A DNA stretch of 30,164 bases from a virus (taxonomy: Duplodnaviria; Heunggongvirae; Uroviricota; Caudoviricetes), in IMG/VR virus record IMGVR_UViG_2737471850_000006; one strand, 5' to 3'. The notes beneath the pieces were generated by a model. It was given only the letters and a program-made list of their open reading frames with translations, had not been told where the DNA came from and ran no database searches. A program made the translations under genes and the position numbers. This document shows, piece after piece, positions 2,037 to 6,344 of this stretch (its first letter is position 1; each line of letters begins with the position of its first letter).

Positions 2037-2975
2037 ATGAATATTTCCGATATTCGCGCAGGACTGCGCACGCTTGTAGAAAATGAAGAAACCACCTTTA
2101 AACAAATTGCTCTTGAGAGCGGACTTTCTACCGGAACTATCAGTAGTTTTATCAATGATAAGTACAACGGGGATAACGAGCGTGTTTCACAAATTCTGCA
2201 ACGCTGGCTGGAAAAATATCATGCAGTTGCAGAACTACCTGAACCGCCCCGCTTTGTGGAAACGCAGACGGTAAAACAAATCTGGACAAGTATGCGTTTT
2301 GCCAGCCTGACTGAAAGTATTGCTGTTGTATGTGGCAATCCTGGTGTGGGCAAAACCGAAGCGGCCCGTGAATATCGCCGCACCAATAACAATGTCTGGA
2401 TGATCACCATTACGCCATCCTGTGCCAGCGTTCTGGAATGTCTTACTGAACTGGCGTTTGAGCTGGGAATGAATGACGCACCACGCCGTAAAGGGCCGCT
2501 CTCCCGCGCCCTGCGACGTCGCCTTGAAGGTACACAGGGGCTGGTTATCATCGACGAAGCTGATCATCTTGGTGCCGAAGTTCTGGAAGAACTCCGCCTG
2601 TTACAGGAATCAACCCGTATTGGCCTTGTGCTGATGGGAAATCACCGGGTTTATTCAAATATGACGGGGGGTAACAGAACGGTTGAATTTGCCCGTCTGT
2701 TTTCCCGTATTGCAAAGCGCACTGCAATTAATAAAACCAAAAAAGCCGATGTAAAAGCTATTGCGGATGCCTGGCAGATTAACGGCGAAAAAGAACTGGA
2801 GTTATTACAGCAGATTGCGCAGAAACCAGGTGCGCTTCGCATTCTGAATCATTCACTTCGCCTTGCCGCCATGACGGCTCACGGTAAAGGTGAGCGTGTT
2901 AACGAAGATTATCTGCGTCAGGCTTTCCGTGAATTAGACCTGGACGTTGATATTTCAACGCTGCTGCGTAATTAA
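2037..2975 (+). CDS. B: ATP-dependent target DNA activator B (AAA+ ATPase), 312 aa
   Basis: ATG preceded by GAGG. Walker A GNPGVGKT and Walker B LVIIDEAD are visible in the translation. Size and position immediately after A match MuB. Confidence 0.9.
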   Translation: MNISDIRAGLRTLVENEETTFKQIALESGLSTGTISSFINDKYNGDNERVSQILQRWLEKYHAVAELPEPPRFVETQTVKQIWTSMRFASLTESIAVVCGNPGVGKTEAAREYRRTNNNVWMITITPSCASVLECLTELAFELGMNDAPRRKGPLSRALRRRLEGTQGLVIIDEADHLGAEVLEELRLLQESTRIGLVLMGNHRVYSNMTGGNRTVEFARLFSRIAKRTAINKTKKADVKAIADAWQINGEKELELLQQIAQKPGALRILNHSLRLAAMTAHGKGERVNEDYLRQAFRELDLDVDISTLLRN

Positions 2976-2990
2976 GAAGGAGAAGAAATT

Positions 2991-3218
2991 ATGATGGCCC
3001 GAAATATAAAAATGGCAACGGATGCGCAGAACTGGTTACAGGCGCGCGGGAGTCATGTAAATGAATCATATCTCGGCGTGGCGCGTCCGATTCTTGAAAT
3101 CACTTACCCACCGGTGGAACTGGTAAAAAACGCGGTCAGAATTATGGAGCATAAGTCCGGGGTGGCCCGTTCTGTATGGACGGCCCGTCTTAATGGTTGC
3201 CAGATTATCTGGAGATAA
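2991..3218 (+). CDS. kil: Small early protein, Kil-like by position (75 aa)
   Basis: Strong RBS AAGGAGAAG upstream of ATG. First ORF after B, as kil is in Mu; size about 74-75 aa. Identity rests on synteny and size only. Confidence 0.5.
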
Positions 3219-3220
3219 CG

Positions 3221-3451
3221 ATGTGTATTAAAGCTGAAAAATATATTGAATGGGTTAAACACTGTCAGTGCCACGGGGTGCCGCTGACGACATATAAATG
3301 CCCCGGATGTGGTGAACAGATTATGACGCAATGCTCACCCGAAAAGGAAATTCGGGATTCCCTGACATGTTGTCCGTGGTGCAGCGCGGTTTTCTTTAAG
3401 CAGGTAAAAGGCGCGAAGGTAAAAGCCAGCGCAGTTATTCAGAATCAATAA
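3221..3451 (+). CDS. Cys-rich small early protein (putative zinc ribbon), 76 aa
   Basis: ATG at 3221 with GGAGA 5 nt upstream. Translation contains CQCHG, CPGCGEQ and CCPWC clusters (9 Cys). Confidence 0.5.
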   Translation: MCIKAEKYIEWVKHCQCHGVPLTTYKCPGCGEQIMTQCSPEKEIRDSLTCCPWCSAVFFKQVKGAKVKASAVIQNQ

Positions 3452-3462
3452 GGAGAAACAAA

Positions 3463-3732
3463 ATGGCAAAAGTTATCTTTGAGTTTACATGGCTGGAAAG
3501 TAGTGAAGGTTGCAATGGGCGCAGAGAAATTCTGGATGCAAAAGCATGTCTTGCAGATATCTCGCCAACGGAAAATACCGGGCCTCATGATTTACTGGCA
3601 AATATCGTCCTGACTATGGCTCCTGAAATTATTAAAAAGGCCAAAGATGAGATGCTGACCACTATGAAGAAAGTGGGTATGGAAGCTGAATGTGATTTAG
3701 TACCACGTCCGGTGAATGTGGTTAAACATTAA
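3463..3732 (+). CDS. Hypothetical early protein (89 aa)
   Basis: RBS AAGGAGAAA upstream of ATG; tightly packed in the early operon. Confidence 0.5.
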   Translation: MAKVIFEFTWLESSEGCNGRREILDAKACLADISPTENTGPHDLLANIVLTMAPEIIKKAKDEMLTTMKKVGMEAECDLVPRPVNVVKH

Positions 3733-3752
3733 TTCGCAAAGGAACGCTGACA

Positions 3753-4100
3753 ATGAACGTCAAAATCCGAAATGAAATTCAGGCATTAATCCGAATTCAG
3801 GAACGCAATAACAACGGTGGTGAATTACGCGAGTTTATTTGTACACGGGTAGTTGATGGTTATGGTGAAAAGACTTACCTGATTACTTTCGACCATTACA
3901 GCATTTGTGCACGTTACTGTGGTGAATCGATATTCCGTGCCATTGTGTATGGCAATGCGTTTGATGTGGATTTATGGGAGTACGTCATGGACCGTGAATA
4001 CATCTGTGTATCAGACCCGAAAGCCCGTGAAATGTGGCAGCGTATCTGGCGCGATTACCGGTTAATGGCAAAAGGCTGGGCGCGCAGCTGTTATTCCTAG
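3753..4100 (+). CDS. Hypothetical early protein (115 aa)
   Basis: ORF with AAAGGAAC RBS-like sequence upstream; co-directional in the early operon. Confidence 0.5.
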   Translation: MNVKIRNEIQALIRIQERNNNGGELREFICTRVVDGYGEKTYLITFDHYSICARYCGESIFRAIVYGNAFDVDLWEYVMDREYICVSDPKAREMWQRIWRDYRLMAKGWARSCYS

Positions 4101-4184
4101 CTTGCCCTGAAAGCGGTTCAGTTATCGCTGCGGCATATTCCGGCATCACTGCGCGAGCCTCTGTTGTACTGAATGGTGGCTGAC

Positions 4185-4472
4185 ATGAAGTGTAATCGTA
4201 AGCGCTGGTCACGCGAAGACCGGGAATTTATCGAGGCCAACGTCGGGAAAATGACCGTTGAAGAAATGGCGGAAAAACTGAAAGTCGCCACAACCGCCCT
4301 CCGGGCACATGCCAGAAGGCACGGAATATCATTGTGTGCATACCGAATCAGTGAACACGACAAATATTTGTGTCGTGAGCTTTATAAGGAAGGGCTGGAT
4401 ATTCATGTCATTGCCCGAAAGATGGAATTAAGCAATCGAGCTGTATCCAGCATTGTATACGGCGGATATTAA
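4185..4472 (+). CDS. Hypothetical early protein, possible helix-turn-helix (95 aa)
   Basis: Second in-frame ATG (4185) has GGTGG upstream; the first ATG (4173) lacks an SD. The HTH call comes from the segment DIHVIARKMELSNRAVSSIV and is weak. Confidence 0.45.
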   Translation: MKCNRKRWSREDREFIEANVGKMTVEEMAEKLKVATTALRAHARRHGISLCAYRISEHDKYLCRELYKEGLDIHVIARKMELSNRAVSSIVYGGY

Positions 4473-4491
4473 TTAACAGGAGCTTTAATTT

Positions 4492-5016
4492 ATGGCTAAA
4501 CCAGCAAAACGTATCAAAAGTGCCGCAGCGGCTTATGTGCCACAAAACCGCGATGCGGTGATTACCGATATTAAACGCATCGGGGATTTACAGCGCGAAG
4601 CATCACGTCTGGAAACGGAAATGAATGATGCCATCGCGGAAATTACGGAGAAATTTGCAGCCCGGATTGCACCGATTAAAACCGATATTGAAACCCTTTC
4701 AAAAGGTGTTCAGGGATGGTGTGAAGCGAACCGCAACGAACTGACAAACGGCGGCAAAGTGAAGACGGCGAATCTTGTCACCGGTGATGTATCGTGGCGG
4801 GTCCGTCCACCCTCAGTAAGTATTCGTGGTATGGATGCAGTGATGGAAACGCTGGAGCGTCTTGGCCTGCAACGCTTTATTCGCACGAAGCAGGAAATCA
4901 ACAAGGAAGCGATTTTACTGGAACCGAAAGCGGTCGCAGGTGTTGCCGGAATTACAGTTAAATCGGGAATTGAAGATTTTTCCATTATTCCGTTTGAACA
5001 GGAAGCCGGTATTTAA
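4492..5016 (+). CDS. gam: Gam host-nuclease inhibitor (Ku-like DNA-end-binding protein), 174 aa
   Basis: RBS CAGGAG. The 174-aa translation matches Mu Gam as I recall it (MAKPAKRIKSAAAAYVPQNRDAVITDIKRIGDLQREASRLE...). Confidence 0.85.
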   Translation: MAKPAKRIKSAAAAYVPQNRDAVITDIKRIGDLQREASRLETEMNDAIAEITEKFAARIAPIKTDIETLSKGVQGWCEANRNELTNGGKVKTANLVTGDVSWRVRPPSVSIRGMDAVMETLERLGLQRFIRTKQEINKEAILLEPKAVAGVAGITVKSGIEDFSIIPFEQEAGI

Positions 5017-5645: not shown

Positions 5646-6175
5646 TGTTTTTTAAAACGTCAAATCCCGCAGCACTGCTGGCGTGGGACCAGTTTATGGC
5701 GGACTGTCTGAAACTACGCGAAGAAGCCCGCCATCTTGATAAGGTTCTGGGTTGTGGTTGCCGGTCAGTATTCAGCACAGGTATTGGTGGGCGTTATTTT
5801 CATGGTGTGAACTTTCCGGGGAATGAGCGCCCTTTCTCGCGGGAGCTGTGGACCGTACAACGGCCCGCATCAGGTAACAGTTGCAGGCCCAGAACTTCGC
5901 GGATACCTGTTCATCTCAGGGAGCAGGCAAAAGAGCTGGCGAAAATATGGCAGGAGAATATTCCGGTCACTTATGCCCGCACAGATGCTCTCTTACCCGC
6001 ACTGGGACTGGATTTCAGCGCAACAATATTCGGACCTCTCCAGTGGTTCCGTGTTGGTGATGTGATTTACGTCATGACGGGGATGACGCCCGCACAAGGC
6101 CGCATGACTGAAATCCTTTCTGACGAATTTATCCGGGCGCAAAAACAGGCGGAGGTAAACAATGGAAAACAATGA
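5645..6175 (+). CDS. Hypothetical early protein (176 aa)
   Basis: ATG at 5645 overlaps the upstream stop (TGATG). The longer 5606 start in the ORF track lies inside the previous gene. Confidence 0.5.
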   Translation: MFFKTSNPAALLAWDQFMADCLKLREEARHLDKVLGCGCRSVFSTGIGGRYFHGVNFPGNERPFSRELWTVQRPASGNSCRPRTSRIPVHLREQAKELAKIWQENIPVTYARTDALLPALGLDFSATIFGPLQWFRVGDVIYVMTGMTPAQGRMTEILSDEFIRAQKQAEVNNGKQ

Positions 6176-6344
6176 AACATCGTATTCGTGGCTGGGGACA
6201 TTTACCACTGTGAAGCAGGAATGTCCGACCTGCGGTAATGAAAACCCTGAATATCTGAAAGAGTGCCCTCATTGTGGTGGGCAGAAATGCAACCACTGCG
6301 ATATGGGCGATGACACGGCGTGCATGAATTGTGAAGGTGAATAA
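6162..6344 (+). CDS. Small zinc-ribbon protein with four Cys pairs (60 aa)
   Basis: RBS GGAGGT 7 nt upstream. Translation contains CPTCG, CPHCG, CNHC and CMNC. Confidence 0.45.
   Translation: MENNETSYSWLGTFTTVKQECPTCGNENPEYLKECPHCGGQKCNHCDMGDDTACMNCEGE

Follow-up and report, generated by a model that had tools for sequence, protein, structure and literature searches.

Small genes between B and gam of a Mu-like virus: orthologues of the Mu kil-gp9 block in a conserved frame with an exchangeable accessory slot

The early transcript of phage Mu covers the semi-essential (SE) region (PMC3820752), and when this region is deleted, non-replicating Mu is no longer lethal and viability is restored (PMC3325207). 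In its kil to gp9 portion, established function is limited to Kil and to the Mu allele of gp7. According to Waggoner (1989), as cited in a passage of PMC3961180, Mu kil is host-lethal and E. coli cells become spherical. The Mu gp7 allele, E6 (Mup07, NP_050611), is the protein named Gnarl2 (Silas et al., Nat Commun 2025, PMC12373910), which emerged from a screen aimed at counter-defence accessory genes. Gnarl2 altered the O-antigen bands of ECOR1 and ECOR22 and raised T5 plating 1e5-1e6-fold (PMC12373910). This O-antigen change was recorded when Gnarl2 was over-expressed in wild strains (PMC12373910), and may not reflect what the protein does in the natural cycle of Mu. For E5, E7 and E8, searches of the literature by locus tag, accession and gene name turned up nothing, nor did they yield any later study of Gnarl2.

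We analyzed a 30,164-nucleotide stretch of viral DNA (IMG/VR record IMGVR_UViG_2737471850_000006), called the window here, in which five ORFs of 75, 76, 89, 115 and 95 codons, all on the + strand, fill the interval between B and gam. The left flank, B (2037..2975, +), encodes a transposition ATPase identical to Mu B at 311/312 residues. On the right, gam (4492..5016, +) encodes a Ku-like DNA-end-binding nuclease inhibitor that matches PF07352 (E 8.8e-42) and is identical to Mu Gam at 173/174 residues. By sequence comparison, the five ORFs are the orthologues of Mu kil/gp5, gp6/E5, gp7/E6, gp8/E7 and gp9/E8. An earlier sequence-only reading of this DNA had correctly described five tightly packed small ORFs in a Mu-like setting, the latter now borne out gene by gene (Kil and gp6 100% identical to Mu, gp9 at 93/95 residues), but it likened only the first, tentatively, to a named Mu gene of the block, and all five are the catalogued kil and E5-E8. 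Annotation of the block dates back to the publication of the Mu left-end sequence, and its existence is no news.

Comparison of the annotated maps of Mu, 3F6, D108 and SfMu placed the window within this group. Mu itself (Mup05-Mup09; GenBank M64097, NC_000929) shares the gene order, the spacing and the B and gam flanks, but differs in carrying another gp7 cassette (23/93 identical), while codon 116 of the window gp8 is an amber and the middle of that gene contains a divergent patch. Mu_3F6 (LR595867) and D108 (NC_013594) have the same five-gene layout with an intact gp8 of 139 aa, compared to 115 aa in the window; D108 also has a distinct gp7 sub-allele and a gp6 of 73 aa. At the DNA level, the identity is 96.9% with Mu_3F6; with Mu it is likewise 96.9%, over a megablast alignment in two pieces that covers 84% of the query. 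A Shine-Dalgarno-like motif lies 5-9 nt upstream of four of the five ORFs, and the intergenic gaps are 2-20 nt except after the fourth. No Rfam family was matched, and promoter-like and terminator-like sites were no more frequent than in shuffled sequence. None of the five proteins has a hydrophobic segment, and PDB sequence searches with Kil, gp6, gp7, gp8 and gp9 found nothing significant. Taking all of the evidence below together, we think it likely that the block is the promoter-proximal part of the SE region of the Mu/D108 group, built from a conserved frame and an accessory slot, and that it reshapes the host early. It is a known block with a role in host manipulation, not a demonstrated anti-defence island.

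The first gene, kil (gp5; 2991..3218, +), starts just downstream of the end of B, as it does in Mu, D108 and SfMu. Its product is identical to Mu Kil at 75/75 residues, so that "tentatively Kil-like", the description first given to it, was right as to Kil but too cautious. It matches PHROG 2743 over its full length (E 2.8e-43), PF26843 (Kil_protein) is recorded on the identical protein of a public contig, and a 53%-identical homologue occupies the same position in Klebsiella Mu-like phages. A scan of genome contigs with Kil gave no confirmed locus. With lambda Kil and Rac KilR, which are FtsZ/division inhibitors, Mu Kil has in common its name and the theme of a small, phage-encoded, host-lethal morphogenetic protein. 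However, the same passage of PMC3961180 reports that the Mu, lambda and Rac Kil proteins have no significant mutual similarity, and that Mu kil yields spherical cells rather than the filaments of lambda Kil and Rac KilR. Because of this lack of similarity and the spherical phenotype, the "septation inhibition" label that RefSeq and PHROG attach to Mu Kil is probably misapplied. Going by the morphology attributed to Waggoner (1989) in that passage, Kil may instead block cell elongation. One member of the Kil cluster is labelled "Protein cim" in one database source.

Across ~80 related loci, kil, gp9 and gam or DUF3164 are constant, gp6 and gp8 are present in some and absent from others, and gp7 belongs to different families; the IMG/VR loci were gathered with Kil or gp9 as bait, and the constancy of these two is thus partly built into the sample. 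Among the 49 IMG/VR loci, gp6 and gp8 occur together in 25, gp6 alone is missing from 13 and both are missing from five, bringing the loci without gp6 to 18/49 and those without gp8 to 5/49. In a further five (5/49), gp6 is replaced by an unrelated 70-aa ORF, and one has a gp6 fragment only. The Klebsiella-type Mu-like phages (e.g. Kp4866-3, OK490420) share with the window the scaffold of B, kil, gp9 and an end-protection gene, with Kil 53% and gp9 46% identical, and differ in the slot, which is either empty, so that kil abuts gp9, or filled by other genes. These fillers include an ORF of PHROG 1518 ("host nuclease inhibitor") at the kil-gp9 junction, and a 54-aa CxxC protein; in addition, a remote gp8 homologue sits between B and kil, and DUF3164 often replaces gam. 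We conclude that a conserved frame, with kil on the left and gp9 followed by gam on the right, surrounds an exchangeable accessory slot. In the window, this slot is occupied by a predicted C4 zinc-ribbon gp6, by a gp7 cassette for which at least one alternative exists, and by an amber-shortened ORFan gp8.

The gene closing the frame, gp9 (E8; 4185..4472, +), encodes a protein of 95 aa identical to that of Mu at 93/95 residues. An alternative in-frame upstream ATG at 4173 would give 99 aa, and many relatives have the 95-aa start only. The gene is found in every related locus with a complete B-gam interval, making it a member of the conserved frame and not a variable accessory gene. A possible helix-turn-helix (HTH) had been noticed in this ORF, and the comparisons agree with it, pointing to two motifs. 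In the window protein, HTH Pfam hits at residues 9-53 and 69-93 are sub-threshold (HTH_Tnp_1, 19.8 bits, below the cut-off of 24.1), while in the Klebsiella homologue, 46% identical, HTH_11, HTH_23 and MarR_2 all score above their Pfam cut-offs, in two distinct parts of the protein. The window protein also resembles, weakly, the tandem-HTH protein 2LVS/Cbp1, and it matches PHROG 323, "transcriptional regulator, D5-like" (E 4.8e-28), over positions 143-242 of a 319-position profile. From these matches, gp9 is predicted to be a basic (pI 9.4), DNA-binding tandem HTH protein, and it would act as a sequence-specific regulator of phage or host DNA.

These properties of gp9 raise the question of whether the block serves the phage's own programme rather than host takeover, as a regulatory or replication module in which Mu DNA is bound by gp9, possibly together with gp6, and which would explain early functions such as arm (amplified replication) or cim (control of immunity). 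Besides the predicted tandem HTH fold and the conservation of gp9 in every complete related locus, a P2-like Vibrio phage has a gp9 homologue immediately before its replication gene A. In addition, the SE region has been credited with arm, cim and sot without assignment to ORFs (PMC4553209, PMC10052514), and the "Protein cim" label of the Kil-cluster member would fit. However, Kil and Gnarl2 are clearly directed at the host, gp6 cannot be a core regulator, as close to half of the relatives do without it, and the PHROG 323 match spans only the central third of its profile. We regard a module directed at phage DNA as possible, though on balance doubtful.

Returning to the slot of the preferred reading, its first gene, gp6 (E5; 3221..3451, +), encodes 76 aa identical to Mu gp6 at 76/76 residues and matches PHROG 3786 (E 1.1e-40); all gp6 homologues carry PF26833 (Phage_Mu_gp6). 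It had been taken for a zinc ribbon with nine cysteines. Both the count, exactly nine, and the ribbon stand, but in a comparison of eight sequences only five of the cysteines are conserved: C27, C50, C51 and C54 never vary and C30 occurs in 7/8, whereas C2, C15, C17 and C38 are variable. Because only five of the nine are conserved, a single C4 zinc ribbon is predicted, following an N-terminal helix. In the AF2 model (pLDDT 89), the CPGC and CCPWC motifs are placed in two beta-hairpin knuckles, giving the two CxxC knuckles with conserved cysteines, each in a beta-hairpin, that define a C4 ribbon. A fold search with this model matched uncharacterised phage proteins only.

The second slot gene, gp7 (E6 position; 3463..3732, +; 89 aa), is a 3F6/D108-type allele. 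In global alignment, its product is identical to that of Mu_3F6 at 85/89 residues (96%), 42% identical to that of D108, and identical to that of Mu at only 23/93; BLASTP of the window gp7 against Mu gp7 gave no alignment. The window protein matches PHROG 2230 (E 2.6e-35) over positions 1-89 of 89 and does not hit PHROG 10252, to which Mu gp7 belongs, while Mu gp7 reaches PHROG 2230 at only E 0.009. When the two families were compared by hhalign, 68 collinear columns were aligned with a probability of 38% (E 3.4e-4). By these comparisons, the window gp7 belongs to a family other than that of Gnarl2, with homology of the two unproven. An 83-aa "MAK...KH" ORF between gp9 and gam of distant Mu-like phages was considered as a bridge between the two gp7 families and rejected (hhalign probability <1%).

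The switch is visible in the DNA as a mosaic cassette. A 60-nt sliding identity against Mu and 3F6 mapped a segment, 3477..3750, that is unrelated to Mu DNA (33-50% identity), with flanks at 95-100% on both sides and borders at codon ~5 and the stop codon of gp7. Of the 49 IMG/VR loci, 20 have the D108 type of gp7, 19 the Mu type and 10 the window type. Gnarl2 and the window gp7 are alike in their slot between gp6 and gp8, their length (87 and 89 aa), their first five residues (MAKVI) and last residue (H), and in being mildly acidic and soluble. They are unlike in having no detectable pairwise similarity and in belonging to different PHROGs, and the O-antigen effect has been demonstrated for the Mu allele only (PMC12373910). 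Because the gp7 family is different, this result is not simply transferable to the window. By analogy with its Mu counterpart, the window gp7 would most likely act on a cell-envelope or surface-polysaccharide step. A more specific proposal, which we hold to be speculative and rather unlikely, is that the gp7 position is an allelic series (Mu-type Gnarl2, D108 type and 3F6/window type), in which each member is adapted to its own target in the host envelope or in O-antigen biosynthesis. If this were true, the window gp7 would be a "Gnarl-like" seroconversion factor with a specificity unlike that of Gnarl2, and exchanges of the cassette would follow the serotype of the host.

The last slot gene, gp8 (E7; 3753..4100, +), encodes a shortened product of 115 aa. 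That this ORF is present was seen from the start, but the truncation was missed: it is a 139-aa gene cut by an amber codon. At 4098..4100 (+), the window has TAG where a DNA alignment shows TCG (Ser116) in both Mu and 3F6. In all 48 comparison loci with gp8 (48/48), the gene encodes 139 aa with a stop at codon 140, and the exact 115-aa product is present on three public contigs. The match to PHROG 3690 (E 1.1e-74) spans profile positions 1-115 of 139, and by this match the window gp8 is assigned to the family by descent, with a truncated product. Read-through translation reveals a 24-codon remnant of the C-terminal tail (4101..4172, +) that would remain untranslated; the read-through protein is identical to Mu gp8 at 128/139 residues. 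Within gp8, a patch at 3831..4010 is 80-90% identical to Mu and 3F6, with flanks at 97-100%, and even the closest of 55 comparison loci reaches only 92.6% over it.

A profile search with gp8 of 1.84 billion representative proteins gave only 11 hits, all from the Mu group or to two short, unannotated remote relatives. The remote homologues (105-113 aa) cover gp8 positions 4-108 only, and the truncated protein may retain the conserved core. Judged by these searches, gp8 is an ORFan accessory gene. An AF2 model built on a 13-sequence alignment had a pLDDT of 41.7 and was unusable. In intact phages, the gp8 stop (TGA, 4170-4172) abuts the ATG at 4173. Ribosomes in the window would stop 72 nt before this TGA-ATG junction, and translation of gp9 might conceivably drop.

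Host takeover or anti-defence activity had been expected of this region. The first part of this expectation is in keeping with the host lethality of Kil and the O-antigen change caused by Mu E6, but nothing ties gp6, gp8 or gp9 to defence. An anti-defence island would have gp6, gp7 and gp8, and perhaps gp9, inhibit intracellular defence (restriction-modification, RecBCD-linked or abortive infection) alongside Gam. Such an island would be consistent with the position of gp6-gp8 near the nuclease inhibitor gene gam, with their resemblance to fast-turnover accessory genes, including the swapping of gp7 as a cassette, with the PHROG 1518 ORF in the same slot of the Klebsiella phages, and with the origin of Mu E6 in a counter-defence screen (PMC12373910). 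Nevertheless, the phenotype found for Mu E6 is a change at the cell surface, not intracellular inhibition (PMC12373910). Searches of all five proteins against Pfam and NCBIfam gave no family above cut-off, and for gp6-gp8 this includes the known anti-restriction families; the PADLOC defence-protein library gave only noise-level hits with the five. Furthermore, gp6 (pI 8.6), gp7 (pI 5.3) and gp8 (pI 7.6) are not strongly acidic DNA mimics, the fold of gp6 leads only to uncharacterised phage proteins, and the shortening of gp8 is apparently tolerated. We therefore consider an anti-defence island unlikely.

Are these ORFs functional genes at all? Profile searches, which the sequence-only reading had proposed as a check, matched each of the five proteins to a phage protein family (PHROG, E 1e-28 to 1e-75). 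The frames are open across ~50 related loci with dN/dS values of 0.09 for kil, 0.27 for gp6, about 0.2 for the gp7 families, 0.18 for gp8 and 0.20 for gp9. We conclude that purifying selection acts on all five genes. Three minus-strand ORFs (3104-3331, 3985-4212 and 4118-4363) were rejected as genes, with stops in 8-16 of the ~50 loci. Some of these minus-strand ORFs are listed as "putative" in M64097.

That the five are decaying or non-functional filler, kept through operon position alone, might be argued from the dispensability of the region for plaque formation (noted already from the sequence, and in line with its place in the Mu semi-essential region; PMC3820752, PMC3325207), from the nonsense mutation in the window gp8, from the many relatives without gp6 and gp8, and from the absence of a recorded Pfam family for gp7 and gp8 and of any but the Mu-specific PF26843 and PF26833 for Kil and gp6, but it is largely refuted by the selection analysis (dN/dS 0.09-0.27 in all five) and runs counter to the intact gp8 of all 48 other loci that have the gene, the phenotypes of Kil and Mu gp7, and the confident gp6 model with its conserved predicted metal ligands, leaving it very improbable.

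Taken as the early, host-reshaping part of the SE region, the block would work as follows. The long early transcript from Pe would carry kil to gp9 together with A and B, and the products of kil to gp9 would reshape the host soon after induction or infection. The slot genes may encode small proteins that act by binding host factors. As fixed parts of the Mu-group early operon, kil and gp9 probably serve the core lytic programme, while the gp6-gp8 slot is of the swap-in/swap-out type that has yielded effectors of the host surface and of counter-defence, e.g. Gnarl2. The window also offers two natural variants of experimental use: a non-Gnarl2 allele of gp7 and a gp8 without its C-terminal tail.

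The window belongs to the Mu/D108 group of transposable phages. It opens exactly at the ATG of transposase gene A (1-1998), so that the repressor, ner and the left end fall outside. Positions 2900-4600 align end to end with Escherichia virus Mu_3F6 at 96.9% identity; the alignment with Mu also reaches 96.9% but breaks into two pieces, which together span only 84% of the query. Of 5,426 complete E. coli genomes, none matched the window at 100% (best 97.4%). Between B (2037-2975) and gam (4492-5016; PF07352, E 8.8e-42) lie five plus-strand ORFs, in full agreement with the list given in the sequence-only reading. The same five are annotated as kil, E5/gp6, E6/gp7, E7/gp8 and E8/gp9 in the records of Mu, M64097 (the 1991 Mu left-end entry), Mu_3F6, D108 and SfMu.

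All five are genuine genes. Each has one strong PHROG family (kil 2743, gp6 3786, gp7 2230, gp8 3690, gp9 323; E 1e-28 to 1e-75), and the reading frames are open throughout the 50 IMG/VR loci that we retrieved with Kil as the query. Mean pairwise dN/dS for kil (0.09) is as low as that for B (0.08) and gam (0.09); the values for gp6 (0.27), gp8 (0.18), gp9 (0.20) and both large gp7 families (~0.2) likewise indicate purifying selection on every gene of the block. Overlapping minus-strand ORFs, some of which M64097 lists as 'putative', were discounted, being interrupted by stops in 8-16 of ~50 relatives. An Rfam search of the block matched no family, and promoter-like and terminator-like sites within it were not more frequent than in shuffled sequence. 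These results fit a polycistron of closely spaced genes carried on the long early transcript that starts at the early promoter Pe and covers the 'semi-essential' (SE) block (PMC3820752).

The product of kil (2991-3218, plus strand, 75 aa) is identical to Mu Kil at 75/75 positions, so that its earlier description as tentatively Kil-like was understated. Expression of Mu kil yields spherical E. coli (Waggoner et al. 1989, as summarised in the lambda Kil paper, PMC3961180), and the Kil proteins of Mu, lambda, and Rac are without significant similarity to one another (PMC3961180). Thus, RefSeq and PHROG seem to have borrowed the label 'Kil protein for bacterial septation inhibition', the product name in the annotation of NC_000929, NC_013594, NC_027382 and LR595867. 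One source gives the name 'Protein cim' to a 68-aa protein of the Kil cluster (P0059), hinting that the genetically defined cim function was at some point equated with this ORF. In 11 comparison loci of related Mu-like phages (L018, L020, L033-L036, L039, L040, L043, L045, L055), a Kil 85-99% identical to that of the window stands beside a B protein only 40-44% identical, which points to a further recombination joint between B and kil.

The next gene, gp6 (3221-3451, plus strand, 76 aa), is 76/76 identical to Mu gp6. Its relatives form only seven 90%-identity clusters, all from Enterobacterales, and are covered by a recent Pfam family, PF26833 'Phage_Mu_gp6'. The sequence-only reading had described a nine-Cys zinc-ribbon protein. 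Nine cysteines are present, and an AlphaFold2 model (pLDDT 89) consists of an N-terminal helix and five strands, with the CPGC and CCPWC motifs placed one per hairpin loop, an arrangement that predicts one zinc ribbon of the C4 type. Four of the nine (C2, C15, C17, C38) are substituted in relatives; C27, C50, C51 and C54 are conserved in all sequences, and C30 in 7/8. The early region contains a second small Cys-rich ORF downstream, at 6162-6344 on the plus strand; it encodes 60 aa with 8 Cys arranged as CxxC pairs and has sub-threshold matches to both a zinc ribbon and DnaJ CXXCXGXG.

The most informative position of the block is gp7 (3463-3732, plus strand, 89 aa). Here the window shares 85/89 residues with Mu_3F6 and 42% with D108, yet only 23/93 with Mu, against whose protein BLASTP gave no alignment. 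Window and D108 gp7 belong to PHROG 2230 and Mu gp7 to PHROG 10252; Mu gp7 matches PHROG 2230 only at E 0.009, and a profile-profile comparison of the two types returned 38% probability, so that common ancestry of the families is no more than possible. In the DNA, identity to Mu is 95-100% as far as ~3476 (gp7 codon 5); from 3477 to ~3750 the two are unrelated, and from 3771 they are identical again: a clean cassette replacement. This dimorphism between Mu and D108 at ORF7 was already pointed out in the SfMu paper (PMC4406740). The swap matters because the Mu counterpart (E6/Mup07, NP_050611) is 'gnarl2', an accessory gene that shifted the O-antigen bands of ECOR1 and ECOR22 and raised T5 plating 1e5-1e6-fold (PMC12373910). 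The O-antigen effect was shown for the Mu allele and cannot be transferred as such to window gp7. An 83-aa ORF that starts MAK and ends KH (PHROG 18464) is found between gp9 and gam in L135 (3286-3537), L137 (3340-3531) and L138 (606-857); it resembles gp7 by eye, and profile comparison did not support it as a relative.

The 115-aa ORF at 3753-4100 (plus strand) is a shortened gp8 gene, in which TCG (Ser116) has become TAG at 4098-4100 through one C>A change. With this amber read through, 128/139 residues agree with Mu gp8, and gp8 is 139 aa long in 48/48 other gp8-bearing loci. Because the 115-aa protein is present on three public contigs, it represents a genuine variant of the lineage rather than an artefact of the window. 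The family is an ORFan: among 1.84 billion representative proteins, a profile search gave 11 matches, and structure prediction (pLDDT 42) gave no usable model. The two remote matches (105 and 113 aa) span profile positions 4-108 only; thus the amber removes a 24-residue tail that they also lack and leaves the conserved core intact. Where gp8 is complete, its TGA stop (4170-4172) directly precedes an ATG at 4173, 12 nt 5' of the conserved gp9 start, and termination 72 nt earlier might conceivably reduce the translation of gp9. Within gp8, identity to Mu and 3F6 falls to 80-90% in a divergent patch at 3831-4010, for which the closest match among 55 loci is 92.6%.

The last gene, gp9 (4185-4472, plus strand), encodes 95 aa, or 99 aa if started at the upstream ATG 4173; the conserved start is that of the 95-aa version. 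The protein is basic (pI 9.4), 93/95 identical to Mu gp9, and aligns with the central third of PHROG 323, labelled 'transcriptional regulator, D5-like'. Pfam HTH families match it below cut-off in two regions (~9-53 and 69-93), and in the corresponding regions a homologue from Klebsiella phage Kp4866-3 (46% identical) scores above the cut-offs for HTH_11, HTH_23 and MarR_2. The tandem-HTH protein Cbp1/2LVS is matched weakly as well, and together these family matches suggest a tandem-HTH character. In a P2-like Vibrio phage, another homologue immediately precedes the replication gene. No search supported the label 'COG1209: dTDP-glucose pyrophosphorylase' that gp9 carries in the Mu_3F6 record.

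We compared gene order across 49 complete IMG/VR loci. All contain kil, gp9 and gam, a constancy biased by the Kil-based sampling. Both gp6 and gp8 are present in 25/49; gp6 is absent in 13/49, replaced by an unrelated 70-aa ORF (PHROG 3375) in 5/49, missing along with gp8 in 5/49, and a fragment in 1/49. The replacement ORF is His-rich and lies at ~236-448 nt after the kil start (L015, L021, L037, L038, L054). Of the gp7 genes, 20 are of the D108 type, 19 of the Mu type and 10 of the window type. A second scan, with a gp9 alignment as query, reached more distant Klebsiella-type Mu-like phages (L056 3250-4412; L110-L137), in which kil is 53% identical and in some directly abuts gp9; other such loci carry between kil and gp9 an 85-92-aa ORF of PHROG 1518 ('host nuclease inhibitor'). 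The gap between B and kil holds, in some, a 54-aa CxxC...CxxC ORF or a 105-111-aa remote gp8 homologue, and DUF3164 often takes the place of gam. The gene orders show a conserved scaffold of B, kil, gp9 and an end-protection gene, with accessory slots on both sides of kil. In the window, gp6, gp7 and gp8 occupy the slot between kil and gp9.

Taken as a whole, the block probably serves host manipulation, as a module that would be expressed together with the transposition genes. Kil would act on cell elongation, the slot genes may encode small binding proteins aimed at host factors, and gp9 would be a DNA-binding regulator. In the literature, Kil is described as lethal and as rounding cells; the SE region is reported to be dispensable yet toxic, and deletion of the whole region restores viability to cells infected with non-replicating Mu (PMC3325207). 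That gp9 accounts for one of the unassigned phage-directed functions (arm, cim) is a less likely reading. We regard it as improbable that the slot genes specifically inhibit intracellular defence systems; the anti-defence activity expected from the sequence-only reading is reasonable, but genomic context was all that we found in its favour. Non-functional filler ORFs are effectively excluded by the purifying selection on the block genes. The host-manipulation, anti-defence and gp9-regulatory readings are not mutually exclusive.

All block genes are catalogued already, as ORFs in M64097, as PF26843 (Kil) and PF26833 (gp6), and as PHROGs for all five, and the exact protein sequences are present in public databases. 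All that is mildly new is that the window phage has a non-Gnarl2 gp7 family and a tail-less gp8, and that kil and gp9 form a fixed frame round a variable slot.
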